A DNA stretch of 64,000 nucleotides from an uncultured Candidatus Saccharimonas sp. (GCA_964511655.1 CAZEGB010000001.1:7087-71086), one strand, 5' to 3'. Shown: positions 4,929 to 63,230, counted from the first letter of the stretch. A program made the numbers and translations. The notes: generated from the letters alone by a model not told the origin.

Positions 4929-5008
4929 AGCGGCCTTCGGCCTCCTTCGCTCATTCGCAAAAGAAAATACCTGCGGCGCTTTCTTTTGCTTCATTCGCTA
5001 CGCCGAAC
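4929..5008 (-). repeat. ~80-nt structured repeat, copy B
   Basis: Aligns with 15055-15133 over its whole length. It has a 10-bp stem GCAAAAGAAA/TTTCTTTTGC (4957-4966/4980-4989) and a terminal GGCC-N3-GGCC hairpin. Confidence 0.7.
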
Positions 5009-6266: not shown

Positions 6267-6977
6267 TTATTGTATTTTCTCGGCTTGACTGTCAATTTGA
6301 CCAGCCAGCCATAAGCCGCTTTCCAGTATAGACTGTAAGAGGCTATTTGAGACGTTTTTATCTGTAGAGTATACATATAGCACTTTGTCGTGAATCTCGG
6401 CTGAAAACGGCCAGAAATGAGCCCCTAGCACCTTTGCGATGCCTGAGGTTATCAATTGTTCAACTTGGATAGACTCGGAAGGCTTTGCGAACAGTGTAAA
6501 TCGGCTAGTAAATTCATCTCCGTAAGATTCGAGAGTACCTATTTCAATAGGCTTCATCATGGGGAAGGCGGTAAAAAACGGTTTATATGAGTTGACGTCG
6601 TGATTATTAGCATGAATAAAAAAGTGCGGGATATCCTGCTTTATATGCAAATCGAACGCCATTATCAACCAGCGGTACATAATAATATCCTTGTCAGCTT
6701 GTATCACGGCGTCGCAGCGGTCGACTATAGTAACATTATATTCGCCGATTGAACCTACCGCGTAATTATCATCTTGGTGGTATGACGATACTGAAAACCC
6801 TCGGACTATTCGGTGATCATCCCGGTGTTGATTGACCGATCCGAAGTGTACGAATCCGATCTTTTCGGCAAATTTGACGATTGCCCGCTTGCGGTTGTGG
6901 CCGTTCGTGAGATTATGATATATATTATGGGTCGCGTGCTTTACGGCGACTTTGACCGGGCGGCTCATATCAATCAT
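6267..6977 (-). CDS. hypothetical protein, last gene of the alpha-glucan cluster
   Basis: The ORF overlaps or abuts the GH15 stop (ATG at 6977 or 6968). I recognise no motif in it. Confidence 0.55.
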   Translation of the reverse strand: MIDMSRPVKVAVKHATHNIYHNLTNGHNRKRAIVKFAEKIGFVHFGSVNQHRDDHRIVRGFSVSSYHQDDNYAVGSIGEYNVTIVDRCDAVIQADKDIIMYRWLIMAFDLHIKQDIPHFFIHANNHDVNSYKPFFTAFPMMKPIEIGTLESYGDEFTSRFTLFAKPSESIQVEQLITSGIAKVLGAHFWPFSAEIHDKVLYVYSTDKNVSNSLLQSILESGLWLAGQIDSQAEKIQ

Positions 6978-15046: not shown

Positions 15047-15153
15047 AGATCGTGGTTCGGCGTAGCGAATGAAGCGAAAGAAAGCACCGTAGGTATTTTC
15101 TTTCGCGAATGAGCGGAGAAGGCTTTAGCCGCTTTCCACGTGCCCCTGCCAAA
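15047..15153 (+). repeat. tRNA-Trp 3' fragment d, split in its T-loop by a 74-nt insert
   Basis: AGATCGTGGTTCG (15047-15059) and TTCCACGTGCCCCTGCCAAA (15134-15153) are contiguous in the intact tRNA apart from a single A (tRNA position 11584) lying between them. Here that A is replaced by a 74-nt insert. Confidence 0.75.
15055..15133 (+). repeat. ~80-nt structured repeat, copy A
   Basis: Stem GCGAAAGAAA (15074-15083) / TTTCTTTCGC (15097-15106) and a second hairpin GGC-TTTA-GCC. Aligns with 4929-5008 on the opposite strand. Confidence 0.7.
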
Positions 15154-24471: not shown

Positions 24472-24557
24472 AGATTACTTAAAGTACCGTCTCTGTTTTT
24501 TCAACGATATTGATGTTCTTTCTTTTATTCTGCATTAAGCTGCCGTAATATGTAAAC

Positions 24558-25205
24558 ATGAGCGTAAGCAATAAACGAAGGAAATTGGCCAAAAAAATAA
24601 CTAGAGGCAAAGAAGCAGCGATATCGCCTACTGCTTGCCGCAAAAAATACATGCTTTTTTTGATGTTGACGGCCGGTATGTTCGCAATTGCAGCAACATC
24701 CTTTTATGTTGGTGAACTGTCTGGAACTTATATTGAAAATAACCTTGTCGGAGTTACGGCATTTATTTGCGGTGTTTTTTGCCTGGCTGAATCAATGCTA
24801 TACTTTATCGCCGGCGCAATCATCACCGTTCTAGGACGACACAAGATTGGGATAAACATATCTGAACTATCAGTCGTTTTTATCGTTATCGCAATATTGG
24901 CTGCCATAACTTTCGCAGGATATTCAACTATCAAGCTGAGAATTGTTAACGCTTCAATTAAATCCGATTTGGTCACCAACAAGAATGTATTAAATATGTA
25001 TTACGTCGACCATGGGTCATACCCGATTTCGCTTGACAGTCAGTATTGTCCCGAAGGTCCTTCTGACAAGCGATATTGTCTCAAAGCATCATCTGGGAAT
25101 ATATTTACTTACGAAGTGTCGGATTCAAACCAAAAATTTACGCTCTACGCTGAAAACCCAGCCATTGAAGACAGATCCAGTATCAATTCAGAATCTTCTC
25201 TATGA
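24558..25205 (+). CDS. type IV pilin-like protein preceded by a ~98-aa polytopic N-terminal extension
   Basis: Residues 98-125, G|INISELSVVFIVIAILAAITFAGY, parallel G|FTIIEILVVIVVIAILAAITIATY of the pilin at 60583-61752. The C-terminal head shares the two-Cys motif YGSYP...CP...(Y/F)C(L/I)K with both pilins. Confidence 0.6.
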   Translation: MSVSNKRRKLAKKITRGKEAAISPTACRKKYMLFLMLTAGMFAIAATSFYVGELSGTYIENNLVGVTAFICGVFCLAESMLYFIAGAIITVLGRHKIGINISELSVVFIVIAILAAITFAGYSTIKLRIVNASIKSDLVTNKNVLNMYYVDHGSYPISLDSQYCPEGPSDKRYCLKASSGNIFTYEVSDSNQKFTLYAENPAIEDRSSINSESSL

Positions 25206-39624: not shown

Positions 39625-39725
39625 ATCTAACCTAGTTTAGATTGAGACTAATTATCAGTAAAGCTCTATTCCGTCACAAATATTGACAACAGATAAGTAA
39701 TCTAGTAGTATATTCAAAGACATTA

Positions 39726-39860
39726 CCAAAGACAGTAGCTGTCGCAAGACTTAATTCGTTCGCCGTACGGCGAACGAAGCTACCGAGGAAAAATCTTATA
39801 TTTTTCGATGTTAGTCTTTGGCAGTGCGATTTGCCGTACGGCGAACCAAAGGTTTTTTTA
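39726..39860 (+). promoter_or_regulatory. rplJ (L10) leader with alternative structures ending in an intrinsic terminator (attenuator)
   Basis: GTCTTTGG (39814-39821) can pair either with CCAAAGAC (39726-39733) or with CCAAAGG (39846-39852), which is followed by TTTTTTT. Two GC hairpins sit at 39757-39776 and 39831-39845. Confidence 0.6.
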
Positions 39861-39936
39861 TTAACCTGCGGGATAAATCGCTAGCTGTCGAACATTTACA
39901 ATTTGGTCGAAAATATCAATCAAAGAAAGGATTTTT

Positions 39937-40464
39937 ATGGCAATTTCACGCGATAAAAAGAACACTTTGGTTGCAGAATTAACCGAATTATTCGCTGACG
40001 CAAAATGCGCCGTTGGCGCCGTTTATACCGGCCTCAGCGTCGCTGATATGCAAGCTTTAAGGACCGCCGCCCGCGACAATAACGTCGTAATCAAAGTAGC
40101 GAAAAATCGACTTGTGCGCGTTGCTTTAGCAGAAAACGACAAGTTCAAAGCTGCCGACACCGGTTATTTGACCGGCCAGTTGGTTTACGCATTTTCTAAC
40201 GAAGATGAAGTCGCACCAGCTCAAGTCTTGGCTAAGTTTTCAAAAACCCATCCGGCATTAAAGCTGGTGGTTGGTTTTGATAATACTGGCGCAACGCTTG
40301 ATGCCGCGATGGTAACTGCGCTTGCCGAATTGCCGACCAAGGATCAACTCCGCGGTCAATTGGTCAGCGTCATCGCTGCACCGCTCAGCGGATTCCTCGA
40401 AGTCGCGAACGGCGCACAACGCGGATTCGCGCAAGTTTTGTCACAGCGAGCCGAAGCAATTTAA
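39937..40464 (+). CDS. rplJ: 50S ribosomal protein L10
   Basis: K...V.EL.E.F......V...Y.GL.V..M..LR...R...V..KV.KN.L pattern and position upstream of rplL. Confidence 0.92.
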   Translation: MAISRDKKNTLVAELTELFADAKCAVGAVYTGLSVADMQALRTAARDNNVVIKVAKNRLVRVALAENDKFKAADTGYLTGQLVYAFSNEDEVAPAQVLAKFSKTHPALKLVVGFDNTGATLDAAMVTALAELPTKDQLRGQLVSVIAAPLSGFLEVANGAQRGFAQVLSQRAEAI

Positions 40465-50097: not shown

Positions 50098-51227
50098 GCT
50101 TTTTGAATCTCGGCTTCTTTTAACGATCTGTCGAGTGATTTTTCGTTTTCGCGAAATTTTCTTTTCGACCTAGTAAAGTAATCTTCGACCAGTACACCGA
50201 TACAGCCGGCAATTGGGATAGAAATCAAACCGCCTGCGATACCGAACAGATAGACTCCGGTCGTAACCGCAATCAATACCACCAGGGCAGACAAATCAGT
50301 CCGTTTCGACTGAATTTTCGGCGATATGTAATTACCCTCAAGTTGCTGATATAAAATACTGAATATCAGAAATACGACAGCAGCACTGACATTATTGAGA
50401 GCCAGAATAACAGCGACTAAGACCGCAGCGATCGGCTCACCGAAAAGAGGAATCAATGATAACGTGAATATTATTGCAGCCGCCGGAATAGCCAAATTAG
50501 TAGGAGCGCCAAACGTCAAATTAATTATAAACACTGAGATGCCGGCAACCGTTCCTGCGATTGAAGATATTGACAGTTGGCCTACCACGAAACCAGTAAC
50601 GACTTTATACATGCGGAATAACAACTTTCGATGATATTCCATGCGCTCTTCGTCGTTATAGACAGACCACAAACGCCGTAACCACGTCGGACCTTCAACT
50701 AGCATCAAAAATGTTAGTACTAAGACCAGAATCGTAGTAAAGATAGTGAATAGCACCGAACCTATGCTCGTAATCAAAAATGATCCAGCACCTGCCGCAA
50801 AACGTGTCGCGCCGTCTTTAATTGAAGTTATGATCTTGTCAACTTCGGGTTGCAAATTATAATGATTAATCAAATTGCTGGCTCCGGTGTATTGCTGCGA
50901 GGCCGAGTCTACCAACGACGGAAAATTCTGAGCAAATTTTACCGTTTGTTCGATGATTGGCGGGACAACCAAAAAGATTACGGCTCCAAGAAACGAAAGT
51001 ACTGCCATATACGCAATCGCAGTGCTTAGAACGCGGCTTTTGCTTGGCAATATTTTGGCCAAACGATTTACAGGTGGGCTGAGAGCGATGGCTAGGAAAA
51101 ATGATATACCTACTATAATCAAAGCGGTGCGAGCCGAATATATAACTAGGGCCGCCAAAGCAAACCCGATTACTACCAGCCAAAAACGCACAAAAGTTCG
51201 TGTGTCGATTTCAATACGTACATTCAT
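50094..51227 (-). CDS. AI-2E family (PerM/UPF0118) transporter
   Basis: About 8 TM segments with the family pattern ...LIPLFGEPIAAV...EGNYISPKIQSK... Confidence 0.75.
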   Translation of the reverse strand: MNVRIEIDTRTFVRFWLVVIGFALAALVIYSARTALIIVGISFFLAIALSPPVNRLAKILPSKSRVLSTAIAYMAVLSFLGAVIFLVVPPIIEQTVKFAQNFPSLVDSASQQYTGASNLINHYNLQPEVDKIITSIKDGATRFAAGAGSFLITSIGSVLFTIFTTILVLVLTFLMLVEGPTWLRRLWSVYNDEERMEYHRKLLFRMYKVVTGFVVGQLSISSIAGTVAGISVFIINLTFGAPTNLAIPAAAIIFTLSLIPLFGEPIAAVLVAVILALNNVSAAVVFLIFSILYQQLEGNYISPKIQSKRTDLSALVVLIAVTTGVYLFGIAGGLISIPIAGCIGVLVEDYFTRSKRKFRENEKSLDRSLKEAEIQKA

Positions 51228-51369
51228 ATTTTGTATTATACACTAATATTCCATTAACGTTTTATGGCACATAAATCACATCATACTACCTGTTATCTGA
51301 AAATAGTAAGATTACAATAATCACAGTTTTAAGCAAATATTCAGGCACGTTTGGTGTATAATAAAATGT

Positions 51370-52044
51370 ATGAGAATACTTATTGTTGAGGACGAACACA
51401 AGATAGCACATGCCTTGAAAAAGGCTTTGCAACAAGAAAATTACGCCGTTGATGTTTCATACGATGGTGACGACGGCTACGCTATGGCAACTACCGAACC
51501 GTACGATTTAGCCATTATCGATCGTATGATACCGGGCGAATATGACGGGATAGGTATCATAAGAGCCATGCGTGAAGCAAAAATTCACACTCCGGTATTA
51601 ATACTAACTGCGAAAGGCACGATTTCCGATCGTACTTCCGGTCTTGATTCCGGTGCCGATGATTACTTAGTAAAACCATTTGCTCTCGAAGAGTTACTAG
51701 CCCGCGTACGCGCTCTATTAAGACGTCCCGTCGAAGTTCAGCAGACCGTTCTTACGGCAGGTGATTTATCGCTAAATACGGTTACTTGCGAAGTTAAACG
51801 CGGTGACAAAATCATCAGCCTGACAGGCAAAGAGTTCGCGTTGCTTGAATATCTGCTTAGAAACCAAGGCCGCCCACACAGCAAAGACACGATCATTAGT
51901 CACGTTTGGGACTATAACGCCGACGTTTTGCCTAATACCGTCGAGGTCTACATGAAGTACTTACGCCAAAAAATTGACGATCCTTTCGACAAACCTCTGC
52001 TTCAGACTGTCCGCGGTTTCGGATATAAAATTGAAGCAAGCTAA
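51370..52044 (+). CDS. OmpR/PhoB-type response regulator
   Basis: Receiver domain (ILIVEDE, DLAIIDRMIPG, LTAKG) and winged-helix output (LTGKEFALLEYLL, TVRGFGYK). Confidence 0.92.
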   Translation: MRILIVEDEHKIAHALKKALQQENYAVDVSYDGDDGYAMATTEPYDLAIIDRMIPGEYDGIGIIRAMREAKIHTPVLILTAKGTISDRTSGLDSGADDYLVKPFALEELLARVRALLRRPVEVQQTVLTAGDLSLNTVTCEVKRGDKIISLTGKEFALLEYLLRNQGRPHSKDTIISHVWDYNADVLPNTVEVYMKYLRQKIDDPFDKPLLQTVRGFGYKIEAS

Positions 52045-52060
52045 AGGTTAAATTACTAGC

Positions 52061-53077
52061 ATGTTCAAATCCGCAACATTGCGATTGACCGGCTGGTATC
52101 TACTAATCCTAATGGCGATTAGCGTCATGTTCAGTATTGCCATTTATGGCGTAATGTCTGATGAGATGGACGTTCATTTGCGCCGTTTCCAGACTAACTT
52201 GCAACAGTCCCAGGATTTTTCGCCGCCACCCGGCATGGCCGTGAATTTCCGCAACAGCGAGATCAAAGAAGCCTTGGACAATTTCTCGCTACAGCTCGTT
52301 TATATAAATTTATTAGTCTTAATAGTTGGCGGACTTGGCAGCTACTGTTTAGCACGCCGTAATCTTTTGCCAATCGAAAGGGCGCACGAAGCCCAATCAC
52401 GCTTTACTAGTGATGCCAGTCATGAGTTTAGGACACCTCTGGCGGTCATGAAGACCGAACTTGAAGTGGCGCTAAGAGACAAAGACACTACGACTGACAG
52501 CTTGAAAGAAGTGCTCTCCAGTAATCTGGAAGAAGTTGACAAACTATCCAGATTAGCAGAAATGTTGCTTAATTTATCCCAGTTAGAACATGCCAAACTA
52601 AAAATGGGACCTGTCAATTTAACTAGAGTTACACGCAACGTACTGAAGGATTTCGGCCCTATGGCAAACCGCATCTCATTTGATTCCAAGAAGCGGCTGA
52701 TAGTGTGCGGCAACGAGATGGCTATCGCCGACTTAATACAAGTCTTGGTTGATAACGCCATCCAGTATAGCCCTAAAGATTCAAAGATATCGATTACGAT
52801 TTCAAAATTCGAGCAATGCGCAAAGTTCGAAATCTCGAATAATGGTCCGGGTATAGAACCGGAAATACTGCCTCATATCTTCGACAGGTTCTATCGAGCC
52901 GATTCGTCTCGGACGAACGGCAAGCGCAAAGGTTTTGGCATCGGTCTGGCTTTGGCAAAGAATATAGTTGAACTGCATAAAGGCAAGCTTTTTGCCAGCA
53001 GTACACCCGACAAAGAAACTACTTTTTCTTTTCTTTTACCGATTTATTCAATCATTCAAGCTAAAACTAAGAACTAG
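52061..53077 (+). CDS. sensor histidine kinase (2 TM, HisKA plus HATPase_c)
   Basis: H-box SHEFRTPLAV, N-box DNAIQYSP, G-boxes NNGPGI and GFGIGLA. Confidence 0.9.
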   Translation: MFKSATLRLTGWYLLILMAISVMFSIAIYGVMSDEMDVHLRRFQTNLQQSQDFSPPPGMAVNFRNSEIKEALDNFSLQLVYINLLVLIVGGLGSYCLARRNLLPIERAHEAQSRFTSDASHEFRTPLAVMKTELEVALRDKDTTTDSLKEVLSSNLEEVDKLSRLAEMLLNLSQLEHAKLKMGPVNLTRVTRNVLKDFGPMANRISFDSKKRLIVCGNEMAIADLIQVLVDNAIQYSPKDSKISITISKFEQCAKFEISNNGPGIEPEILPHIFDRFYRADSSRTNGKRKGFGIGLALAKNIVELHKGKLFASSTPDKETTFSFLLPIYSIIQAKTKN

Positions 53078-53132
53078 TTCATACAATAACATTCATAACA
53101 TCTAACGTTCGCTAGTCAGCGAAGGAGAAAAT

Positions 53133-54512
53133 ATGAATGTAATCACGCGGGGAATTAAAAATGCCCTCCGTAGTCCGTTACGCTCAGGCGCAATCATTCT
53201 GATGCTTGCAATCAGCATCGGATTAATACTATGTATGCTTGTCGCGAGGGGCAGCATCAATAACAAAATCGCTGATGTCAAGGCAACTGCCGGCACTAAT
53301 ATTACAATCAGACCGGCCGGTGTTATGGGTTTTGCCGGCGGCGGCGATCTGCTAACCGCTGAGCAAATCTCTACAATTAAAAATACCGACCATATATCAG
53401 GCATAACATCGACATTAAGCGATCAATTAAGTACATCTGATGCCAACCTTACTTCGTCACTGGAAATGGGGAACTTTGGTGAACGCATGCAAAGGTTTGA
53501 AAGTAGCAGCAGCTCTAGCAGTACATCGAGTTCTTCGGACTCTAGCAGCGATTCCACTTCAACCGAGGCCCGTCCTGCACCGACACCAAGAATCACCGTG
53601 ACTGGTACGACCGACCCTAACTCTGTTTCCAGCACTGGCGGTGCTATCACCATTTCAAGCGGCAAGACAATTGATGGCAATAGCAGCGACCTGGTAGCGC
53701 TGATTGGTACCGACCTAGCTACTAAAAACAACCTTGAAGTAGGCAGTACATTTACTACCTACAGTAAAACTGTCACAGTCGTAGGGATATTTACAACCGG
53801 CAATACCTTCCAAGATAGCGGTATTATAATGCCCCTTGGCACAGTCCAGACGCTGACCGACCAGACAGACGAAATCAGCAGCGTCGTCGCCAAAGTTGAC
53901 AGCAGTGACAACGTCAGCTCGGTCGTATCAAGCCTGAAATCATCGCTTGGTAGCAAGGCAGATATTGTTAGCGAAATCGACATTGCTAACAACAGCGTGT
54001 CGAGCCTAGAAGGCATCGCCTCGTTGGCCCTCGCAGGCGTCATCGGCGCGACCGTTGCCGGTGCAGTTATCATACTACTAGCAATGGTCATGATAGTACG
54101 CGAAAGAAGGCGTGAAATCGGCGTCATAAAAGCCATCGGCGGTACGAACGCAAAAGTAATAACTCAATTCATGACTGAGGCCCTAACCTTGACTGTTATC
54201 GGAGCAGTAATAGGACTCTCACTAGGCGTATTAGTCAGCGGGCCGATGACAACGTCACTAGTAAGCAACGCGAGCACCACCTCAGCCGGTTCATCCAGCA
54301 CATCCAGTAACAGACCCGATGGGCCCGGCGGAATGATGATGCGCGGCATGAATCAAATAAGTAAAAACTTTACTCAAGTAACGGCCAGTCTGACACCCCA
54401 AATATTCATAATAGCTACTAGTATGACCCTGCTCATCGCAGTAGTAGGCAGCGCCGTACCAGCATGGTTCATTGCCCGTATACGCCCGGCTGAAGTGTTA
54501 AGGTCCGAATAA
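53133..54512 (+). CDS. MacB/FtsX-type ABC transporter permease with a Ser-rich low-complexity insert in the periplasmic domain
   Basis: N-terminal TM, a large extracytoplasmic domain (SSSSSSTSSSSDSSSDSTSTE, about 53503-53565), and a C-terminal FtsX 3-TM bundle (RRREIGVIKAIGG). Confidence 0.8.
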   Translation: MNVITRGIKNALRSPLRSGAIILMLAISIGLILCMLVARGSINNKIADVKATAGTNITIRPAGVMGFAGGGDLLTAEQISTIKNTDHISGITSTLSDQLSTSDANLTSSLEMGNFGERMQRFESSSSSSSTSSSSDSSSDSTSTEARPAPTPRITVTGTTDPNSVSSTGGAITISSGKTIDGNSSDLVALIGTDLATKNNLEVGSTFTTYSKTVTVVGIFTTGNTFQDSGIIMPLGTVQTLTDQTDEISSVVAKVDSSDNVSSVVSSLKSSLGSKADIVSEIDIANNSVSSLEGIASLALAGVIGATVAGAVIILLAMVMIVRERRREIGVIKAIGGTNAKVITQFMTEALTLTVIGAVIGLSLGVLVSGPMTTSLVSNASTTSAGSSSTSSNRPDGPGGMMMRGMNQISKNFTQVTASLTPQIFIIATSMTLLIAVVGSAVPAWFIARIRPAEVLRSE

Positions 54513-54528
54513 AATATAGGAGTAAATT

Positions 54529-55197
54529 ATGTTAGTAGTCAAAAACCTTACCAAAGTATTCTCAAGCCCTAGCGGCGACGTGACAGCCTTAGATAACGTA
54601 AATCTAAGCGTAAAAACCGGCGAGTTCGCCAGTATCATCGGCAAATCAGGCAGCGACAAAAGCACGCTGCTGGCAATGCTAGGTGTACTAGACGTTCCAA
54701 CGGAAGGCAGCGTAGAAGTTGACGGCGTCGACGTAGCCAAAATGTCCGCCGGCAAACAGACGTCATACCGGGCAAAGAAAATCGGTTTCGTATTTCAGTA
54801 TTACAACCTGATACCAAACCTTTCGGCTGTCGAAAACGTCATGTTGGCACTGGAATTTGGCGGAGTGCCTAAAAACAAACGCCAGGAAAAAGCCGCCAAA
54901 CTTCTAAGTGATGTCGGTATCAAACCGGACGAGCAATTGCGCAAGCCTTCGCGTCTTAGCGGCGGGCAACAACAGCGCGTCGCTATCGCCAGGGCCTTGG
55001 CGAACGATCCGGCAATTATTTTAGCAGACGAGCCGACCGGTAATCTAGATAGCGAAACCGGCAAAAATATATTCGATTTGTTACATAAATTATCACGCAG
55101 CAAAAATACGACGATTTTGGCTGTCACGCATGATATGGATATTGCCGGCAAGACCGATATTACTTTCAGACTAAAAGATGGTAAGATAACCGCTTGA
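54529..55197 (+). CDS. ABC transporter ATP-binding protein (MacB/LolD-like)
   Basis: Walker A GKSGSDKST, signature LSGGQQQRVAIARA, Walker B ILADEPTGNLD. Confidence 0.92.
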   Translation: MLVVKNLTKVFSSPSGDVTALDNVNLSVKTGEFASIIGKSGSDKSTLLAMLGVLDVPTEGSVEVDGVDVAKMSAGKQTSYRAKKIGFVFQYYNLIPNLSAVENVMLALEFGGVPKNKRQEKAAKLLSDVGIKPDEQLRKPSRLSGGQQQRVAIARALANDPAIILADEPTGNLDSETGKNIFDLLHKLSRSKNTTILAVTHDMDIAGKTDITFRLKDGKITA

Positions 55198-55198
55198 T

Positions 55199-57511
55199 TT
55201 AGCGCTCGCGCTCTTTTAGGCGTCTTCCGGCCTCGCCGGCTATCACCCATTGCAAAACAGCTGTGGTAACAATCACGAGCAGCAACGGTAAGGTTCCTTG
55301 CCAGGCCGGCGTCGTAAAGTCAAAGAAGTCGCGAATAAAACCGACTCCAAAACTAATCGTAAATATAAAGACAACAATCAGTATATATAGTATCCTTGCT
55401 AATTTAGCCTTGCGATCATTGACTACGTCGAACATTCTCGGTACTAAGAATACTAGGTAGATGCCAAACAGCAAGGCAATAATCACGGTCGTAGTCGATA
55501 CGCCCTCTAAGTCATTCGGATGAATTACCCGTAACATTATGTACGTCAACGTCGCGACCATACCAGAAAGGGCGGCTATCGGGATAATTGCAAACAGCGT
55601 GTCGCGCCAAAAATAACGCGGCGACAACCGATGGCGCGGCAAAGGAATAAATAATGTCCACATGATAGTAGGTAGTGTTACCAGGAATATATTCATAAAA
55701 GTGATATGTCGCGGTTCATACGGGTAAACGATAAAGTAGGCCAAGGTCGAAAGCAACAGTACTGTTCCATAGATAATCTTGTGAAAGAATAACGTGGCAA
55801 TCATTTCGATTGCCTGCATTATGCGATTACCCAACTTCATCCCTAACGGCAGTGAATTGAAAGAATTGCTTAGAAGTACTATGTCGGCCACGCGCCTAGT
55901 CGAGGCAGCACCGGCAAACATTGCGACTCCCAGATCGGATTTTTTGATAGCAAGGGCATCATTGACGCCGTCGCCAACCATACCGGTAAAATTGCCCATC
56001 TTTTTGAAAGTTGCTATTAATCTTTCTTTTTGCTCGGGCAAAACTCGTGCGAATACGGTCGTTTCCGAAACCAGTTTGTCCCATTCGTGACTGTGCAATT
56101 CCTTCAGTTCGGCTCCGGTAATAACTTTCTGATAGTTTTCGATGCCGACTTGTTTAGCCACATATTGAACCGTATTCGGATTATCGCCGCTGATGACTCG
56201 AATACTGACGCCGTTATTCTGTAAAAATGCCACGGTTTTTTCAACGCCGCGCCGTAGTTCGTTAGTCAATACCACTAGTCCGATAGACTTGCCGGATTGA
56301 TTGGGAATTTGCTTTAATGAACCTTTTTCAGTATCAAACATAGCAACCAACAGAACGCGCTTGCCGACACTAGCCAGTGATTCGATACGCCGTTTCTGTA
56401 CAGGTGTAAGTTCAGCCAGTTTGCCTAAAAATTCAGGTGCGCCAACAAGAATACTGTGTGTCCTGCCGCCGTATTTCACTTTGATGCCGCTCATTTTGCG
56501 TTCAGACGAAAAGGCAAGCGTCTCAATGACCTCATATTTTTCAGGAACAGGAAATGCCGCAGCCATAGCATCACCAGTAGAACTACCGCTGCTGGTTTCC
56601 TTGGCGACGACACCGATAAGTTCATGAATGTCACTAACGGATTCGTCAAATAGTTCCAGGTTGTCAAAAGTAATTTTGTCACTTGTCAGAGTACCGGTCT
56701 TGTCGACGCATAATACATCAAGTAGAGCCATCGCTTCGATTGCCGCTAATTTTTGCGGCAATACTTTCGCCTGAGCAAGCCTTATCGAACCGTAAGCCAG
56801 CAATAAAGTACTGGCTAGCAATAATCCTTCCGGGATAACAGTTACGGCGCCAGAGGTAATCGTCTTGAATATCCTGACCGCATTTTCACCCGACAAGCGA
56901 TAAACGATAAATATTAATCCCGCCAGACCCAAGGCGCCATAAGTCAACCAATTGATTGCCCGAGCAATATTCTTTTGAATAGGTGTTAACCTGGGGTTAT
57001 AGCGTTTCAATGTCGACGCCATCTTGCCGACCCTGGTATCTGCTCCGACTGCAGTAACATGCATGGTTGCACTGCCGGCAACTACCGCGCTGGCCGCATA
57101 AACGATTGAGTCTAATTCTTTATCAACCGGCGCCGATTCGCCGGTCATTATACTTTCATCTGCCTCCATGCCGCTTGAGGCCGTAATCAAACCGTCAGCC
57201 GGTACCTCGTCGCCCATTTCGAGTTTGACAAAATCACCGACCTGCAGTTTATCGAACATGACTTCTTCAGTACCACCATTAGGCAGTATCCGACGGGCCC
57301 GAGGAGCATTCATAAGTTCTAATTTCTTTAACATCCTTTGAGCACGTATCTCCTGGACGATCGCTATCAATGTATTGAATACTATGACCGATGATATGAA
57401 TAATGCGTCGCGATTTTCCTTTAAAAACGCCATCACGGCGGCCAATAAAAGAATCGCTATGACAGTCGGCGACAAAAAATTTCGCCGGATAATAATCAGG
57501 ATATCCTTCAT
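55199..57511 (-). CDS. P-type cation-transporting ATPase (type II-like)
   Basis: TGES, PEGL, DKTGTLT, ISGDN, GDGVNDALAI. Confidence 0.88.
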   Translation of the reverse strand: MKDILIIIRRNFLSPTVIAILLLAAVMAFLKENRDALFISSVIVFNTLIAIVQEIRAQRMLKKLELMNAPRARRILPNGGTEEVMFDKLQVGDFVKLEMGDEVPADGLITASSGMEADESIMTGESAPVDKELDSIVYAASAVVAGSATMHVTAVGADTRVGKMASTLKRYNPRLTPIQKNIARAINWLTYGALGLAGLIFIVYRLSGENAVRIFKTITSGAVTVIPEGLLLASTLLLAYGSIRLAQAKVLPQKLAAIEAMALLDVLCVDKTGTLTSDKITFDNLELFDESVSDIHELIGVVAKETSSGSSTGDAMAAAFPVPEKYEVIETLAFSSERKMSGIKVKYGGRTHSILVGAPEFLGKLAELTPVQKRRIESLASVGKRVLLVAMFDTEKGSLKQIPNQSGKSIGLVVLTNELRRGVEKTVAFLQNNGVSIRVISGDNPNTVQYVAKQVGIENYQKVITGAELKELHSHEWDKLVSETTVFARVLPEQKERLIATFKKMGNFTGMVGDGVNDALAIKKSDLGVAMFAGAASTRRVADIVLLSNSFNSLPLGMKLGNRIMQAIEMIATLFFHKIIYGTVLLLSTLAYFIVYPYEPRHITFMNIFLVTLPTIMWTLFIPLPRHRLSPRYFWRDTLFAIIPIAALSGMVATLTYIMLRVIHPNDLEGVSTTTVIIALLFGIYLVFLVPRMFDVVNDRKAKLARILYILIVVFIFTISFGVGFIRDFFDFTTPAWQGTLPLLLVIVTTAVLQWVIAGEAGRRLKERER

Positions 57512-57663
57512 ATTATCCTATTATATGTTTTCTTATCGTATATGGCTATGCTTGCCTAGTTAAAGAAAAAAACACAACGATAATGTGTTTGATTTAAGCT
57601 TTGGTTCAGCAATATGCGGGATAATGAGATTGCAATATTAAAGTCATAGGGGGAGGATTCACT

Positions 57664-58140
57664 ATGAAAACTACCATCACAGACAAAACGATTTTGCTAA
57701 GCAAGAAGGGTTTGAAAGAACTCAAGAGAACAATCGCCCAATTAGAACGTGACAAACGAATCGCTTTGGAAGAACTTCGTGATTTTGAAAAAACTTTCGG
57801 TCACGACGAAAGGTTGGAACGAATTGAAAAAATAGCATCGTTAGAGATTATCGAATCGGAATTGAACGATAAAAAGATGGTTCTAGCAAACGCCAAATTA
57901 CTGCCGTCAAAACGCGAAAGGATAAAGGTCGCCATCGGATCGGTCGTCGATCTGATTGATATGCGCGGACATCTGTTTCGTTTTACGATAGTCGATAGTA
58001 TCGAGGCAAATCCAAGCGACGGACGAATTTCGATTCTCAGCCCGCTGGGGAAAAGCCTGTTGGGCCGAACCGTCAAAGACATAGTCAAGTGGGGGACAGG
58101 CAATAAAACCAATCAATTCCAATTAGTACGAATATCTTAG
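57664..58140 (+). CDS. greA: GreA/GreB-family transcription elongation factor
   Basis: N-terminal coiled coil (LSKKGLKELKRTIAQLE) and C-terminal FKBP-like domain (V.IGS.V.L.D..G....F.IV...EA.P..G.IS..SP.G..LLG). Confidence 0.8.
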   Translation: MKTTITDKTILLSKKGLKELKRTIAQLERDKRIALEELRDFEKTFGHDERLERIEKIASLEIIESELNDKKMVLANAKLLPSKRERIKVAIGSVVDLIDMRGHLFRFTIVDSIEANPSDGRISILSPLGKSLLGRTVKDIVKWGTGNKTNQFQLVRIS

Positions 58141-58162
58141 CCGAGATGCCCTGATTATTGAG

Positions 58163-58187
58163 AAAACCCGGTATATCCGGGTTTTTT
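58163..58187. terminator. bidirectional rho-independent terminator
   Basis: AAAACCCGG-tata-TCCGGGTTTTTT lies between the convergent greA and the 58208-58459 ORF. Confidence 0.75.
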
Positions 58188-58207
58188 CATATTCTACAAG
58201 ATTAAAG

Positions 58208-58459
58208 CTATGACGCAATACTCAATAGCGTCCAATTGCCGCCATTGTCATCGTTGCGCAGATGATATTCCGACACGCCGTCCGACATGGTAAATATCTC
58301 GGCAATCCGCTCGCCCTGACGCACTAAACATCGCAAGCCGGCATCAATGAAATGATAGGTTACGCCATTAAATTCGATCCGACGCGGATAGGCGACCATA
58401 TTCTTTTTAAATCCGACTGACGTCACGACGATCTGTTCGTTTATTTCCACTTTGCTCAT
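58208..58459 (-). CDS. hypothetical 83-aa protein
   Basis: SD GGGGGA upstream of the ATG, and a terminator downstream. No motif recognised. Confidence 0.5.
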   Translation of the reverse strand: MSKVEINEQIVVTSVGFKKNMVAYPRRIEFNGVTYHFIDAGLRCLVRQGERIAEIFTMSDGVSEYHLRNDDNGGNWTLLSIAS

Positions 58460-58704
58460 AACAATTCCCCCAAATTAAGACTATTTAAGACTGCCGGTTG
58501 GATTAGATTAACCAGCGAACGGCTTGGTGGGTTAGTTAACAAGGGATAGGAAAGCGATACCGTTCAAATTCGCGTTCTGTTTACCCGTAACTAATAATTG
58601 TTTTCGTCTGTCAGTGGCTAGTTATTAGCGTAACGACGTTGATGGTGGCTTTATATATAAGCCTGTAAGTGGAAAGGTTGCCCAGTACCTACATAGCTAT
58701 CCTA

Positions 58705-58735
58705 ATTATATATTGTCGATTACTTGAAGCGTCAA
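58705..58735 (-). promoter_or_regulatory. sigma70-like promoter TTGACG-N17-TATATA (or N19-TATAAT) preceding a ~240-nt leader
   Basis: On the minus strand, TTGACG is at 58735-58730 and TATATAAT at 58712-58705. Confidence 0.45.
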
Positions 58736-58755
58736 TCACAAAATCTATGTGAAAT

Positions 58756-59328
58756 TTACTTCAATGACAGCACTTCGGCCAAGGTTTTATCGTTGATGTA
58801 AATATCGGCAGTTGTCACATTGGCGGCTTTTTCGGCGGTCATTTCTAATACTGCCTGGACGCGTGGATTATCGCATACGCCGCCAAGACTAAGCGTACCA
58901 GTCAAATACACTTTTATTGTATCGCCGGACTTTTGGCTGCTAGAGAATTTGAGATTGGAGTTATACAAAACATTATAAAGGCCCGATTCGCCGTACCATT
59001 GGTTCTTGTTGGATAATAGCCTTTCGAAGGATGATTTAACGACGTCATTAGTCGTTACATCGGCAGTCGTTACCGCCACGGCGCTGTCGCCGCAACCGAT
59101 CTTGACACCGGATTTGCCATCATCTTCGATTGCGGTGTAATACAAAATTAACGGACCGGTAACCTCATTGGTCTTTTGCTGGTTATTATTCGACGAGTCA
59201 GTCGATTTTTTGCCGACCGTAAATGATATGTTGATATTCAACATATTAATAGCCAATACCGCCAAAATACCCGCGGCGATAATGACCCCCAAAATTGATG
59301 AAGTAATTGCCCAGTAGTTATGTCTCAT
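58756..59328 (-). CDS. membrane-anchored GerMN-domain protein
   Basis: N-terminal TM, then a pattern typical of GerMN (ILYYT...GCGDS.V.V....., L..LL, TIKVYLTG.L, VQAVLEMT, IYIND). Confidence 0.6.
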   Translation of the reverse strand: MRHNYWAITSSILGVIIAAGILAVLAINMLNINISFTVGKKSTDSSNNNQQKTNEVTGPLILYYTAIEDDGKSGVKIGCGDSAVAVTTADVTTNDVVKSSFERLLSNKNQWYGESGLYNVLYNSNLKFSSSQKSGDTIKVYLTGTLSLGGVCDNPRVQAVLEMTAEKAANVTTADIYINDKTLAEVLSLK

Positions 59329-59392
59329 AAAGACTTACTCCTGCTTAGTTTATAAGCATATTATACCATTTTTAAAGCAATATAAAAAGAAA

Positions 59393-60532
59393 CTATTTTT
59401 TTGCGTCGACGCCGATAGCTTGGCTGATGTGGGTATAGCCGTCTTTTTCCAGTAATCTAATTAGTCCGTCATTGATTTCAGCTGCCAGTTGTGGGCCGTT
59501 AAATATCAGGCCGGTGATAATTTCAACCAGGCTGGCACCCAGACGTATTTTTACATAGGCATCCTCGGCCGTAAAAATTCCGCCGACGCCGATTATCGTC
59601 AATTTTTTACCGTAATTTAGGTACGTTCGACGAATCAGTTCGTTACTTAGATTATAGGCCGGTTTGCCGCTTAGATTGCCACGAACCGAATCAGGTAAAA
59701 CGTCTTTCAACTCGACTTTGCTTCGGTCCTTTGCCAGATTAGCGACCGTAACACCGGCGACCTTGTGTTTTACTGCCACATCCAACAACTTTTTGAAATT
59801 TTTCCAATCCAAATCGACCGGCATTTTGATAAATATCGGCTTTTTTAGACCGACTTCGTCGACGGCCGATAGCAATTTTTCCAAGCGCTCCGGCGTAGTA
59901 AACGGTTCGCCGCCGTAAGCGTTCGGACAAGATATATTAACTTCAAATATCTTGATGGATTTTTCATTTTTAGCTCGCTTTAGCGTAGTTACGTAATCGT
60001 TTATAGCGTCCTTGGTATCGACGACCTTGCTATGGTTCGTCTTGGCGACCGAAAGCACGATAGGGAAGCCTCCAGTAGCCTTTGAACCGTAATTCTTCAA
60101 CCTATTAATAACTACTAGCGAGCCGTCGTTAGCCAACCCTGCATTCACGACTAACGACTTGGTTTTTGGCAACCGATAGAACCAAGGGCGGGGATTGCCG
60201 GCGCATTTTTTTGCCGTGACCGAACCGACCGTACCGAAACCGAACCCCAGTGCCGCGATAGCCGGTACGATTTCGCCGCTTTTATCAAAGCCGGCCGCCA
60301 GTCCAACGGGGCTGTCAAATTCGATGCCGTGAAATTTCTGAACCAATCTGTCATCACGCTTTCTTTTGAAGATTGTCCTGACAAACAACGTGAATATGCC
60401 GGAGGACCCCAAAACAGATGTCGTCCGTATCATCGAACTATGCATAAAGTCCGCCGGCAACAAGAATATAACCGCCTTGCCCGGATAAACGTACAAAAAC
60501 CGACATATTTTCCAAAGATAAGTTCGTACCAT
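59393..60532 (-). CDS. pyrD: dihydroorotate dehydrogenase (quinone), class 2
   Basis: GL.F.SPVGLAAGFDK.GE, GFGF..VGSVT, NISCPN, GVGGI....DAY.KIR.GASLV, and an N-terminal membrane-association helix. Confidence 0.85.
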   Translation of the reverse strand: MVRTYLWKICRFLYVYPGKAVIFLLPADFMHSSMIRTTSVLGSSGIFTLFVRTIFKRKRDDRLVQKFHGIEFDSPVGLAAGFDKSGEIVPAIAALGFGFGTVGSVTAKKCAGNPRPWFYRLPKTKSLVVNAGLANDGSLVVINRLKNYGSKATGGFPIVLSVAKTNHSKVVDTKDAINDYVTTLKRAKNEKSIKIFEVNISCPNAYGGEPFTTPERLEKLLSAVDEVGLKKPIFIKMPVDLDWKNFKKLLDVAVKHKVAGVTVANLAKDRSKVELKDVLPDSVRGNLSGKPAYNLSNELIRRTYLNYGKKLTIIGVGGIFTAEDAYVKIRLGASLVEIITGLIFNGPQLAAEINDGLIRLLEKDGYTHISQAIGVDAKK

Positions 60533-60582
60533 GTCTATTAATTATGACAGATTGTCACAACTGGTCAAACTTTTACGTCATA

Positions 60583-61752
60583 CTATTTCGTAACACGAAA
60601 GCCAATGGCTGCGTAAGCGTCGGTCATAGTGTCTGTCAAGCATAGATAAAATGGCCCAGGATTACCTGCTGAACTTTGGTAGTAACCACTACGAAGAAAA
60701 GGACGTAATACAGTCGTGTCATCGGCATTTGTATGGGCTCTTCCAATACCCTGGGCACCTCCCCAACTGGCAGCAGCAGCATACGCTGTAGCAGGGTATG
60801 GGTCAGGTGATAGCGTTCCGTGAGTCGTCACCGCGTTCCACTCCCTGGTATCCATACCTCCGCCCAAAACACCAGGCTGACCGCCCAGCGTCTGACCCTG
60901 AGTCCATTCGTACGCGTTACCAACGAAATCCCAAATCACTTCGCCATTCGAAAGAGTCAACGTCCTACGTTGGTTCGAAGGGGCGGTATTACCAGTCAAA
61001 TAGTAGCCATCATTGTCATCCGTTGAACCTGCAATGCGAGAGGTAGGGCTATTATCAGTATGCCCGACGTACATTTCGCCCGACCCTACAACACCGCCAG
61101 TCCAATTGCTTGCAACTAACATGACGTTTTGGGCAATCGTTAACCACTCGGCCTCGGTAATCAGATGACAGCCGCTACAAGCAGTTTCTGCAGTAGTAAT
61201 AGAATTTGGCTGGGTAATAGTCCCCCAGTTAGTACCCGCCGCTACGCTGGTTGGTATACCGCCAACGTTCTTGGCTTCGAACTTCATGACACAAAAGTCT
61301 GACGTGCCGTAAGTCGCGCTGCCAGGCACTACTATGAATCCTGTCGGGCAAGTAATTGCCGTAGATACGGTCGGGGTAGTACTTTCGGTTATTTCATATT
61401 TTGTCGTTCCCTGGGTCCCTGTCAAAAGAAAGGTTTCTTGATCGACCGTAGAATAAGCCAAAGTAGTGCCGCTGTTAGATTTTAGACAAAAATTATTATC
61501 AACGGTCGATGGAGCCGTCGGGCACAGACTAGCATTAAGAAAAGGGTAAGAGCCGTATTTTAAATTGTAGGCTTTTAACATTTTCGCAGCACTGGACAAA
61601 TCAGACTGGACAACTGCAGCCGTGGCCTTGCCGGAGATATTATTGTACGTGGCTATGGTAATCGCAGCTAAAATAGCTATGACTACAATCACTACCAGTA
61701 TTTCGATAATTGTGAACCCTTTTTGAACACGAGAAAGACAAACTTTTTTCAT
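60583..61752 (-). CDS. type IV pilin-like protein fused to an FGE/SUMF1-type (C-type-lectin fold) domain
   Basis: Prepilin motif KG|FTIIEILVVIVVIAILAAI with Glu+5, a two-Cys pilin head, then LITEAEWLTIAQN and VGNAYEWTQ and C-terminal IGFRV (FGE-sulfatase-domain hallmarks). Confidence 0.75.
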   Translation of the reverse strand: MKKVCLSRVQKGFTIIEILVVIVVIAILAAITIATYNNISGKATAAVVQSDLSSAAKMLKAYNLKYGSYPFLNASLCPTAPSTVDNNFCLKSNSGTTLAYSTVDQETFLLTGTQGTTKYEITESTTPTVSTAITCPTGFIVVPGSATYGTSDFCVMKFEAKNVGGIPTSVAAGTNWGTITQPNSITTAETACSGCHLITEAEWLTIAQNVMLVASNWTGGVVGSGEMYVGHTDNSPTSRIAGSTDDNDGYYLTGNTAPSNQRRTLTLSNGEVIWDFVGNAYEWTQGQTLGGQPGVLGGGMDTREWNAVTTHGTLSPDPYPATAYAAAASWGGAQGIGRAHTNADDTTVLRPFLRSGYYQSSAGNPGPFYLCLTDTMTDAYAAIGFRVTK

Positions 61753-61791
61753 GACCCTAGTTTAGCATTAGCAGCATGGATATATCAAATG

Positions 61792-63186
61792 TTAGCTACG
61801 TTTATACATAGATATAGAATTGCTGTATGCATTTGAAACATAGACCGAGGTACCGTCAGGTGAAATTTTAATTACAATCGGAACGTCACCAGACGAAATT
61901 GTTGATACTGTAAATGGCGTCAATGCGCCAGTCGCAATATTTCGCTGGAATTTTTTAACTACGTCAGAATCTCCTATTGCAGCGTAAACCGAAACTCCGT
62001 CAGGCGATACGGCAATATCCAACGGGCTCGAACCGGCATTGATCGTTGGTGTTCCCAAGGCAGTTAAGGCGCCGGTAGAAGTATTTCGGCTGTACATTGA
62101 TATATTATTGGAATTAACGTTCGTAGCATATACGGACGATCCGTCAGGTGATATTGCCATGCCGCGCGGAGTCGTACCGGCATTGATCGTTGGTGTTCCC
62201 AAGGCAGTTAAGGCGCCGGTAGAAGTATTTCGGCTGTACATTGATATATTATTGGAACCACTATTCGCAACATAAACCGATTTGCCGTCCGCAGAGACTA
62301 CAATACCTATTGGGTTCGTACCGGTATCGATTGTTGGTGCCGTCATAGCCGTCAATAGACCCGTTGAAGGATTTCGATTGTACATCGAAATTTTGTTAGA
62401 TACATAATTAGCCACATAAACCGACAGGCCGTCAGCTGATATTGTTATCGTCCACGGATCTACATCCGCTGCAACAGTACCTAATGAAGCCAATAGACCC
62501 GTACTAGTATTGCGACTATACATAGATACCGTATGCGAATCCTGGTTAGTAACATATACTGATAGACCATCAGGAGAAATTACTACGTCTTGGGGAGCGG
62601 TCTGAGCAGCAATAGTCGAAGGCGTCAACGCAGTCAGAGCGCCTGTTGTAATAGAACGACTGTACATACTAACACTACTTGCAAGTGAATTAGCAATGTA
62701 TGCAGACGTACCATCAGGCGAAATTGCAATCCCGCGAGGATACGTTCCGGCCGCGATTGTTGCCGGCGACAAAGCAACTAATTCGCCCGTAAAGCCAATA
62801 CTAGGCGCGCTGTCGTTAGTGACATAATACGTTGTCGTATTTTTTGATCCTGTCAAACGAAAATTTTCGGAATCAATTAAATTATAAACGAATGTTCCAC
62901 CCCTAGTTGCCTTTATACAAAAATTTGTGTCGACAGTCGGCGATGTCGGACATAAGTTAGCATCAAGAGTCGGATACGTACCGTATTTTGCACGATACAA
63001 GTTCAAATTCTGCGCAGCGCTTGCCAGATCCGCCTTTATCGATGCCAGATTTGCCTTTTTCATCATGAAACTGTATCCCTCTATGATGATTAGCGCCAGT
63101 ACTGCTATGACAATGACGACCACTATCAGTTCAACGACAGTGAACCCTTTGCGTGTTCCAATTCGAGATTTCAATAGACTTTTCAT
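61792..63186 (-). CDS. type IV pilin-like protein fused to a 7-bladed YVTN-type beta-propeller
   Basis: Prepilin motif KG|FTVVELIVVVIVIAVLALI, a two-Cys pilin head, then seven ~44-48-aa repeats of the form ISPDG.SVYV.N....ISMYSRN..TG.L. Confidence 0.75.
   Translation of the reverse strand: MKSLLKSRIGTRKGFTVVELIVVVIVIAVLALIIIEGYSFMMKKANLASIKADLASAAQNLNLYRAKYGTYPTLDANLCPTSPTVDTNFCIKATRGGTFVYNLIDSENFRLTGSKNTTTYYVTNDSAPSIGFTGELVALSPATIAAGTYPRGIAISPDGTSAYIANSLASSVSMYSRSITTGALTALTPSTIAAQTAPQDVVISPDGLSVYVTNQDSHTVSMYSRNTSTGLLASLGTVAADVDPWTITISADGLSVYVANYVSNKISMYNRNPSTGLLTAMTAPTIDTGTNPIGIVVSADGKSVYVANSGSNNISMYSRNTSTGALTALGTPTINAGTTPRGMAISPDGSSVYATNVNSNNISMYSRNTSTGALTALGTPTINAGSSPLDIAVSPDGVSVYAAIGDSDVVKKFQRNIATGALTPFTVSTISSGDVPIVIKISPDGTSVYVSNAYSNSISMYKRS
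62032..62113. repeat. 82-bp perfect intragenic direct repeat, copy 1
   Basis: Identical to 62176-62257. The 144-nt offset equals one 48-aa propeller blade. Confidence 0.9.
62176..62257. repeat. 82-bp perfect intragenic direct repeat, copy 2
   Basis: Identical to 62032-62113. Confidence 0.9.
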
Positions 63187-63230
63187 GCGTCAAGTTTAAC
63201 ATTAGCGGTATAGACATTTCAAGGAATATG

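Follow-up and report, generated by a model that had tools for sequence, protein, structure and literature searches.

Modular pilins, in which a class III signal and a small pilin are followed by a short linker and a bulky module that is not specific to pili, have been described in Streptococcus sanguinis (PMC8179133). PilB of this species bears a vWA module and PilC a lectin module. The module was proposed to be an adhesin presented by the filament, and this was shown for PilB (Raynaud et al. 2021, PMC8179133). In the Saccharibacteria, Nanosynbacter lyticus TM7x possesses two minor pilins with large C-terminal accessory domains, PilX1 and PilX2, whose loci lie apart from those of the pilus machinery (PMC11623550). 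Structural comparison shows both proteins to be lectin-like; efficient binding to the host depends on PilX2, which has a propeller of seven blades (PMC11623550). The present study concerns two tandem genes, hereafter A and B, in 64,000 nucleotides of DNA from an uncultured Candidatus Saccharimonas sp. (CAZEGB010000001.1:7087-71086); this whole stretch is referred to as the window. Their products have the general make-up of the pilins mentioned above. Quite probably, a Saccharimonadales (Saccharibacteria) epibiont uses them as type IV minor pilins of the bimodular ("modular") kind, and their large modules would serve as host-binding heads.

The likeness has its limits. The modules of A and B, a C-type lectin of the kind found in diversity-generating retroelements (DGRs) and a YVTN propeller, differ from those of the S. 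sanguinis pilins, the encoding organism is a Patescibacteria epibiont, and A and B are known from sequence and models. As for TM7x, the propeller of PilX2 is of the RCC1 type and PilX1 has a jelly roll, whereas B has a propeller of the YVTN/lactonase type and A a C-type-lectin fold. PilX1 and PilX2 are also without a predicted PilD signal, unlike A and B, whose signals are canonical. The assignment to the Saccharimonadales is based on the locus itself, which has 99% identity to JAXDCN010000060.1, a contig of "Candidatus Saccharimonadales bacterium isolate POMEDNA-B45"; this fits the initial assumption that the cell is an epibiont. The labels on the named homologues of A and B are nearly all Candidatus Saccharibacteria. 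The two genes lie on the minus strand, 39 nt apart, and their parts are the following.

60583..61752, minus strand: gene A, predicted modular type IV pilin of 389 aa, consisting of leader, stem with head, and a C-type-lectin/FGE-fold domain of the DGR-variable-protein type
61717..61752, minus strand: leader of A, MKKVCLSRVQKG, aa 1-12, with predicted cleavage between G12 and F13, and E17 as Glu+5
61369..61716, minus strand: pilin module of A, aa 13-128, with alpha-1 helix 15-66, a four-stranded head and Cys77/Cys89
60586..61362, minus strand: C-type-lectin/FGE-fold domain of A, aa 131-389, with four invariant cysteines (135, 154, 192, 195), recognised by Foldseek and by the PF03781 matches of homologues
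61792..63186, minus strand: gene B, predicted modular type IV pilin of 464 aa, consisting of leader, stem with head, and a seven-bladed YVTN propeller
63145..63186, minus strand: leader of B, MKSLLKSRIGTRKG, aa 1-14, with a predicted prepilin-peptidase site between G14 and F15, and E19 as Glu+5
62794..63144, minus strand: pilin module of B, aa 15-131, with alpha-1 helix 17-68, a small beta-sheet head and Cys79/Cys90
61795..62787, minus strand: propeller of B, aa 134-464, seven four-stranded blades, recognised by PF10282, TIGR02276, AlphaFold2 (AF2) and Foldseek

The N-termini identify both proteins as likely prepilins. Around the predicted cut, marked here by a slash, A reads MKKVCLSRVQKG/FTIIEILVVIVVIAILAAI (KG/FTIIE, FTIIEILVV) and B reads MKSLLKSRIGTRKG/FTVVELIVVVIVIAVLALI (KG/FTVVE, FTVVELIVV). 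A six-frame motif scan of the 64 kb found the canonical combination of G/F[TS]xxE and a hydrophobic helix in A and B only. The scores of TIGR02532, 29.9 bits for A and 22.2 bits for B (residues 12-35), exceed the cut-off of 16.3, and PF07963 matches A with 29.5 bits (4.9e-7, residues 8-32; cut-off 21.2). The residues around the cleavage site are also conserved in the respective families. F13, T14 and E17 of A are invariant in an alignment of 81 sequences (A1), where G12 is nearly so, and all four are invariant in a further alignment (A2); F15, T16 and E19 of B are invariant or almost so among 33 sequences. The first 131 residues of the two proteins have 47% identity (E 5e-27); beyond them, A and B are unrelated. 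The initial annotation, which had placed two tandem open reading frames (ORFs) at 60583..61752 and 61792..63186 and credited them with canonical class III signals and a shared two-Cys pilin head, was thus right on these points.

Full-length models point in the same direction. AF2 modelled A from 81 sequences and B from 33 with a mean confidence (pLDDT) of 91.7 and 91.0, respectively. In both models, a helix of about 50 residues packs on a small beta-sheet head, and this pilin stem is followed by a separate, independent C-terminal domain. Sequence and profile searches of the PDB with A matched its N-terminal part to type IV pilins and GspG only (geopilin, PilA4, PilE, GspG), and Foldseek placed the pilin module of A next to Thermus PilA4 (6xxd_A, probability 1.00) and Pseudomonas PilE (4noa). 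The residues Gly, Ala, Ser and Thr (GAST) account for 42-43% of A and B, compared with 20-28% in four cytoplasmic proteins of the window. This composition was used as a pilin hallmark by Grossman et al. (PMC11623550).

The matches to GspG bring up the possibility that A and B serve secretion or DNA uptake, as pseudopilins of a system for competence (Com) or of one akin to type II secretion; the initial annotation had itself named the latter. Partial N-terminal matches to GspG (TIGR01710, 44.4 bits for A and 36.4 bits for B) and to ComGC do exist, and Saccharibacteria are described as naturally competent (PMC10633639). TIGR01710, however, covers the alpha-1 helix only and stays far under its equivalog cut-off of 88.85 bits, and ComGC, whose cut-off is 75 bits, reaches 24.5 and 22.5. 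An identity of A or B as a GspG or ComGC pseudopilin was rejected on these scores. Moreover, lectin or propeller modules of 260-330 aa are not normal on pseudopilins or competence pilins, and the thin-pilus pilins of TM7x, including the propeller pilin, affected host binding and not competence (PMC11623550). A secretion or competence function is therefore very unlikely.

The C-terminal domain of A takes a fold that is common to C-type lectins and FGE. In a Foldseek search with the model, DGR variable proteins came out on top: TaqVP of Thermus aquaticus (5vf4, E 7.6e-8), Mtd of a Bordetella phage (1yu4, 2e-4) and TvpA of Treponema denticola (2y3c), with E values up to 4e-3 and only 12-18% identity to A. 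Further matches with the FGE fold are EgtB, PvdO, ToxD and CalU17. In the three variable proteins, as predicted for A, about 40 C-terminal residues ending in GFRV form the variable ligand-binding face. They differ from A in that A is fused to a type IV pilin stem and has no template repeat (TR), reverse transcriptase (RT) or Avd in its window. Judging by the model, A has a C-type-lectin fold of the DGR-variable-protein subtype.

Pfam gave no match of PF03781 (FGE-sulfatase) on A itself at E<=1. A precomputed PF03781 match is carried by many homologues of A at 52-59% identity. Since a direct Pfam match is missing, the assignment of the fold rests on structure and homologues. The initial annotation had attributed FGE/SUMF1-type hallmarks to A. 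The motifs (LITEAEWLTIAQN, GNAYEWTQ and IGFRV) stand in the translation, and the fold was recovered by AF2, Foldseek and homologues; a direct Pfam match and the catalytic cysteines of FGE were not found. The initial annotation was correct on the fold and made no mention of the DGR-variable-protein subtype, of the commonness of the family (more than 1,000 homologues, already catalogued) or of the exchange between strains.

The family is indeed large. A search with the C-domain of A yielded 1,076 homologues. The best 120 of these 1,076 are mostly about 380-420 aa long, most of them with PF07963 and many with PF03781, and the named ones among the homologues listed are prepilin-type proteins of Candidatus Saccharibacteria. 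The domain was also observed away from pilins. Metagenome-assembled genomes (MAGs) of Bdellovibrionota, which are predatory bacteria, encode an A-type lectin-fold domain at 32-34% identity. There, the domain is part of a 1,203-aa repeat-rich surface protein (locus L016, 7610-11221) and of a putative lipoprotein of 359 aa (locus L022, 9818-10897), and both have a DGR-like C-terminal segment.

The module of B is a seven-bladed propeller of the YVTN/lactonase type, as the initial annotation had proposed for 61792-63186. PF10282 (Lactonase) matches B with 163.9 bits (7.7e-48; cut-off 21.7) and TIGR02276 (YVTN) with 56.1 bits (2.5e-15; cut-off 27.85). AF2 models the domain with 28 strands, four to each of seven groups, and seven ISPDG...ISMYSRN blades can be read in the translation. 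The motif SxDG occurs seven times, at residues 156, 204, 250, 298, 346, 394 and 442, with a spacing of 46-48 aa. Foldseek ranks 1l0q first (E 2.2e-19, 30% identity); this YVTN propeller belongs to the S-layer of an archaeon, and lactonase-type propellers come next. The structure 1l0q is from Methanosarcina mazei and is a seven-bladed, extracellular, non-enzymatic display domain, as the module of B would be; it belongs to an S-layer protein with PKD domains, whereas the propeller of B sits on a pilin stem. Proteins that combine PF07963 and PF10282 number in the dozens, are about 450-600 aa long and cover B almost in full, and the fusion is therefore recurrent. RCC1 had no match on B in the Pfam search, and B was for this reason ruled out as an orthologue of the RCC1-type PilX2 of TM7x. 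Part of the propeller is internally repetitive.

61981..62412, minus strand: three tandem 144-nt units (100/83/65% identity) in the propeller blades of B, found by repeat search

Blades 4 and 5 of B share the identical peptide ISMYSRNTSTGALTALGTPTINAG, a stretch of 24 residues. Together with the tandem units, this identity may be taken as a sign of recent duplication of the blades or of gene conversion.

Both folds are found in enzymes, and the grafted modules could in principle be enzymes displayed on a pilus, A bearing an FGE-like oxidase and B a lactonase. Homologues of A match the Pfam family FGE-sulfatase, B matches the Lactonase, SGL and Arylesterase families, and modular pilins with peptidase modules have been catalogued (PMC8179133). 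The closest structures argue for another role, since those of A are non-enzymatic variable proteins and the closest solved structure of B is the non-enzymatic S-layer propeller. Lactonase equivalogs score far under their cut-offs on B (NF008258, 72.6 against 370 bits; NF050136, 58.3 against 500 bits). In 81 members of the family of A, no conserved cysteine follows C195; C371, the only cysteine of A in this part, lies in a hypervariable column. The catalytic pair of human FGE, Cys336/Cys341, is taken by us to fall in the C-terminal segment of A, i.e., the most variable part of the protein. As the pair is absent from the 81-member alignment, A was ruled out as an FGE-type enzyme, with the placement of the pair assumed as above. 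Only a very small chance is given to displayed enzymes as the explanation for the two modules.

A and B are probably pilus adhesins, and a likely course of events can be proposed. A prepilin peptidase would cut after Gly, between G12 and F13 of A and between G14 and F15 of B, and release leaders of 12 and 14 residues. The alpha-1 helix and the small two-Cys head would then enter a type IV pilus, the machinery of which would be encoded elsewhere in the genome. The grafted modules, of about 260 and 330 aa, would be exposed, by analogy with PilB of S. sanguinis and PilX2 of TM7x. Because they are much larger than the stem, exposure at the tip, or sparsely along the shaft, seems most likely. There, the modules would bind a ligand on the host cell envelope and mediate attachment. 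This adhesin reading, already put forward in the initial annotation, agrees with what has been published on modular pilins (PMC8179133) and on PilX2 of TM7x (PMC11623550). As one of the two modules comes from a family that a retroelement hypermutates in related bacteria, it is likely that A and B are exchangeable adhesins for host recognition and do not represent a novel type of system.

Several points weigh against this proposal. On B, PF07963 scores 19.2 bits, just under the gathering score of 21.2. A Pfam scan of 30 large ORFs of the window detected none of the genes pilB/C/D/M/N/O/T and only housekeeping and transport genes, so that the search for pilus genes suggested by the initial annotation was negative among these ORFs. 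Peptidase_A24, the prepilin peptidase family, was likewise not found among the ORFs of the 64 kb that were put through Pfam. The processing and assembly of A and B consequently rest on analogy. An enzymatic role of B is also conceivable, as its propeller family includes true lactonases. Pilin loci of TM7x are also situated apart from the machinery loci (PMC11623550), and by comparison the locus of A and B would be an "orphan" pilin locus like two of the four pilin loci of TM7x (PMC11623550).

The relatives of A reveal a link to DGRs. All fetched loci were scanned for repeat pairs with mismatches on one base only, DGR linkage was scored within up to 10 kb of flanking sequence, and the family statistics refer to 81 related sequences. 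One case is a homologue with 43% identity (L007). Its locus contains a 124-nt repeat pair in which all 17 mismatches fall at adenines of the distal copy, and the variable copy occupies the final 124 nt of the pilin-lectin gene. Between the two copies lie an Avd-like ORF and an RT with IGNLTSQLFANIYL and YMDD motifs. The same cassette, with RT and Avd and with 14 of 14 mismatches at A, accompanies a 48% identical, full-length prepilin that has the same two-Cys head (L087). Adenine-dominated pairs of template and variable repeat (TR/VR) plus an RT were found in L100, L102 (9/9 mismatches at A) and L113. In these three loci, as in L007 and L087, the cassette is located at the 3' end of the family gene. 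L111 has an adenine-dominated TR/VR pair at the contig end, and in L099 an RT is accompanied by a pair with thymine bias on the opposite strand. Of the family loci for which 3 kb or more of downstream sequence was available (or an RT matched), only three out of 17 have an RT nearby.

The variability of the family reflects this mechanism. The template of L007 encodes FLRGGNWNNGGNAGVLNLNLNNSASNTNTNIGFRVSR, with eleven Asn codons. Ten of the eleven template-Asn columns (357, 359, 360, 364, 371, 373, 374, 378, 380 and 382) are the highest-entropy columns of the C-domain, with 2.96-3.61 bits. The residues K, E, Q, M and W, which cannot be encoded by NNY, make up 3.0% at the template-Asn columns compared with 16.1% in 39 other equally variable columns. 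This depletion is five-fold (Fisher 3e-30, a p value inflated by the kinship of the sequences). The entropy peaks at template Asn and the NNY spectrum are therefore seen as the imprint of adenine mutagenesis on the predicted binding face of the family. In relatives of A, this same face is, to judge from the repeat pairs, rewritten by DGRs.

A separate observation was made in another saccharibacterial locus (L047, CAIUKF010000012.1, 5453-8728). It encodes the same two-Cys pilin stem with a different C-terminal domain, which ends in ...GFSVRCLGN. Here, the DGR is complete, with a VR at 6515-6702, an Avd-like ORF, a TR at 7306-7493 (16/16 mismatches at A) and an RT. The C-terminal domain presumably resembles the "major paralogous" type of DGR target of Fibrobacter.

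In A itself, the equivalent of the variable repeat was located by alignment with the TR/VR pair of L007.

60592..60705, minus strand: VR equivalent of A, aa 350-387 (RPFLRSGYYQSSAGNPGPFYLCLTDTMTDAYAAIGFRV), predicted ligand-binding face

The binding face of A would thus be its last 38 or so residues, by homology to the VRs of DGRs and by the variability pattern of the family. A template repeat for the 3' end of A (60583-60740) was not found in the window by a whole-window repeat search, an adenine-bias self-blastn or a relaxed blastn of the last 158 nt. The window also had no significant tblastn match to two DGR RTs and three Avd sequences taken from related loci, and 13.7 kb of the sister MAG contig were likewise devoid of RT, Avd and TR-like repeats. 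A look-up of contigs that encode the exact A, or its allele with 99% identity, gave only short Logan contigs and the sister MAG contig of 23.8 kb. The recovered alleles of A differ at only one to three VR codons: Y358V is found in L001 (the sister contig JAXDCN010000060.1), and the protein P0002 has lost residues 356-358 and has Y369F and T373A. The substitutions between close alleles concern codons 358, 369 and 373, at first or second codon positions. Nine of the eleven codons of A that are aligned to template Asn end in C or T; the other two are caa and aca. The nine codons are compatible with a past DGR origin.

A could still be an active DGR target that is served in trans, with RT, Avd and TR elsewhere in a genome of about 1 Mb rewriting codons 357-382. 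The fold of A, whose best matches are DGR variable proteins, would suit such a role, and so would the relatives at 32-48% identity that have adjacent DGR cassettes and a VR at the homologous position. The family-wide variability bears the NNY imprint of AAY templates, most of the template-Asn-aligned codons of A have the expected third base, and the allele substitutions hit codons 358, 369 and 373 at their first or second positions. The allelic pattern speaks against it, nonetheless. One homing event would re-randomise most of the approximately 11 codons, whereas alleles from different samples differ at one to three, and one of them has a three-codon deletion, which is not a homing product. 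The caa and aca codons do not fit an AAY template. In addition, no cassette component occurs in the 64 kb window or in the 13.7 kb of the sister MAG, and the RT is scarce among the family loci, as stated above. Diversification of A in trans is thus regarded as doubtful; active hypermutation of A is unproven, and the window itself offers no evidence for diversification.

A broader proposal is that the family of A is a principal cellular DGR target in Saccharibacteria, its members being pilus adhesins of epibionts that act as "programmable" determinants of host range and are rewritten by hypermutation or, in the present lineage, by exchange and reshuffling of stem/head cassettes. In its strongest version, A is still diversified in trans. 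This proposal is tentative and rather improbable. DGRs are known to be enriched in the Candidate Phyla Radiation (CPR). Their targets in this group were described as usually being without a recognisable transmembrane or other conserved domain (Roux et al. 2021, PMC8144416), and a DGR survey from 2024 named a "GspG-type pilin" domain only among the scarce domains that hold a VR. If true, the proposal would give the DGR targets of the CPR an identity.

Whereas active hypermutation of A is doubtful, traces of exchange are evident at the locus. The features concerned are listed below.

60583..62985, minus strand: recently exchanged tract, 11 differences in 2,403 nt (99.5% identity) to JAXDCN010000060.1 (L001) by blastn
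61759..61788, minus strand: promoter-like element of A, TTGATA-18-TG-TAAACT, ending 6 nt 5' of the ATG
63193..63222, minus strand: promoter-like element of B, TTGAAA-18-TG-TAAACT, ending 6 nt 5' of the ATG

Over the 10 kb of housekeeping genes next to the tract (50574-60582), the identity to L001 is only about 87%, and the fall begins with the first bases of the neighbouring gene. This step, from 99.5% to about 87%, indicates recent recombination or transfer of the pilin cassette. The upstream breakpoint lies inside B, at the end of the alpha-1 helix (about aa 67), and the first 67 or so residues of the B orthologue in L001 are a different sequence. Further upstream, L001 has a third modular pilin with another lectin-fold domain, at the place of the ABC-transporter gene of the window. 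Genomes differ in how many pilin genes stand in tandem here. In a further strain, L166 (logan:SRR10769912_230313, 700-2869), a chimeric gene that encodes P0002 follows the ABC transporter. It combines a B-type leader and alpha-1 helix with a head like that of the third pilin of L001 and the lectin domain of A (96.8% nt identity). A propeller pilin, apparently frameshifted, comes after the chimera, so that the gene order is reversed.

The promoter-like elements fit in with such units. The 30-nt degenerate pattern TTGAwA-18 nt-TG-TAAACT has two matches in the window, with 0 expected by chance, and no Shine-Dalgarno sequence is evident before A or B. This suggests that the mRNAs of A and B may be leaderless or near-leaderless. 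Taken as a whole, the pilin locus appears to behave as a set of self-contained cassettes, and related populations appear to exchange and recombine these. Cassette recombination seems to be the main way in which specificity changes in this lineage.

Some of these elements have precedents. Both architectures are present in Dataset S1 of PMC8179133, as IPR012902-IPR005532 (8 proteins) and IPR012902-IPR019405 (1 protein). Judging by the homologues retrieved, the family of A, with more than 1,000 members, is far larger than this catalogue suggested. Propellers at the tip of type IV pili are known from PilY1 of Pseudomonas aeruginosa and PilC of Neisseria, where they serve adhesion (PMC8179133, PMC11623550). 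Unlike B, which is itself a pilin, PilY1 attaches to a complex of minor pilins without being one, and it has a propeller from a different family (IPR008707). The type V pili of Bacteroides have tip adhesins diversified by DGRs (bioRxiv 10.1101/2024.11.15.621889), the same concept as in the relatives L007, L087 and L047 of A. Type V pili are assembled by strand exchange and belong here to another phylum; A, by comparison, is of type IV and has no detectable DGR in the window. Modular pilins, both architectures and host-binding minor pilins of Saccharibacteria are thus already known, and the DGR link and the cassette exchange add to this knowledge. The family link of type IV pilin stems to DGR lectin domains and the exchange of cassettes are the parts that may deserve the attention of specialists; pilin targets might already figure in Paul et al. 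2017.

The initial annotation had further indicated a paralogue with an aberrant N-terminus, which was confirmed.

24558..25205, plus strand: third pilin-head paralogue of 215 aa, with a two-Cys head and without an extra module

Over 100 aa, its identity to A amounts to 42% (E 5e-20). A degenerate cleavage motif, KIG/INISE, is found behind some 98 additional N-terminal aa with hydrophobic segments, and TIGR01710 matches residues 99-158 (2.4e-4). A -10-like motif, TGTAAAC, abuts the ATG (24530-24557, plus strand). The position of this promoter-like motif just 5' of the first ATG suggests that the long N-terminal form is real. The protein may be a membrane-anchored pilin-like protein.

The pilin pair is flanked upstream by an ABC-transporter gene (3' part) and downstream by a dihydroorotate-dehydrogenase-like gene, and the G+C content of the 64-kb window is 42.9%. 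Other features of the window were recorded in passing. A glucan-metabolism cluster at 6970-11370 (minus strand), with GH15 glucoamylase-like, GH57 and GT4/starch-synthase-like glycosyltransferase genes, is notable in the reduced genome of an epibiont. A ribosomal protein L10 leader (Rfam RF00557, 61.5 bits), an ordinary feature, was found at 39708-39867 on the plus strand, upstream of the ORF 39937..40464. A 69-nt element occurs twice, at 4940-5008 and 15055-15123, in inverted orientation, 91% complementary and 10 kb apart. Its interior has a AAAAGAAA...TTTCTTTT hairpin, TTCGC motifs recur in it, and it matched no tRNA and no Rfam family.

Little is known about how ultrasmall epibionts choose their host and attach to it; tests so far concern a few pilins of a single cultivated strain, TM7x. 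The locus described here offers two candidate adhesins with good models, in which one conserved stem carries different binding modules. The lectin-type module comes from a very large family of saccharibacterial pilins that has repeatedly been coupled to DGR hypermutation. Its predicted binding face can be read from the variability pattern of the family, which gives specific residues and constructs to test. Together, the large family, the readable face and the moving cassettes point to pilus adhesins as fast-evolving determinants of host range.

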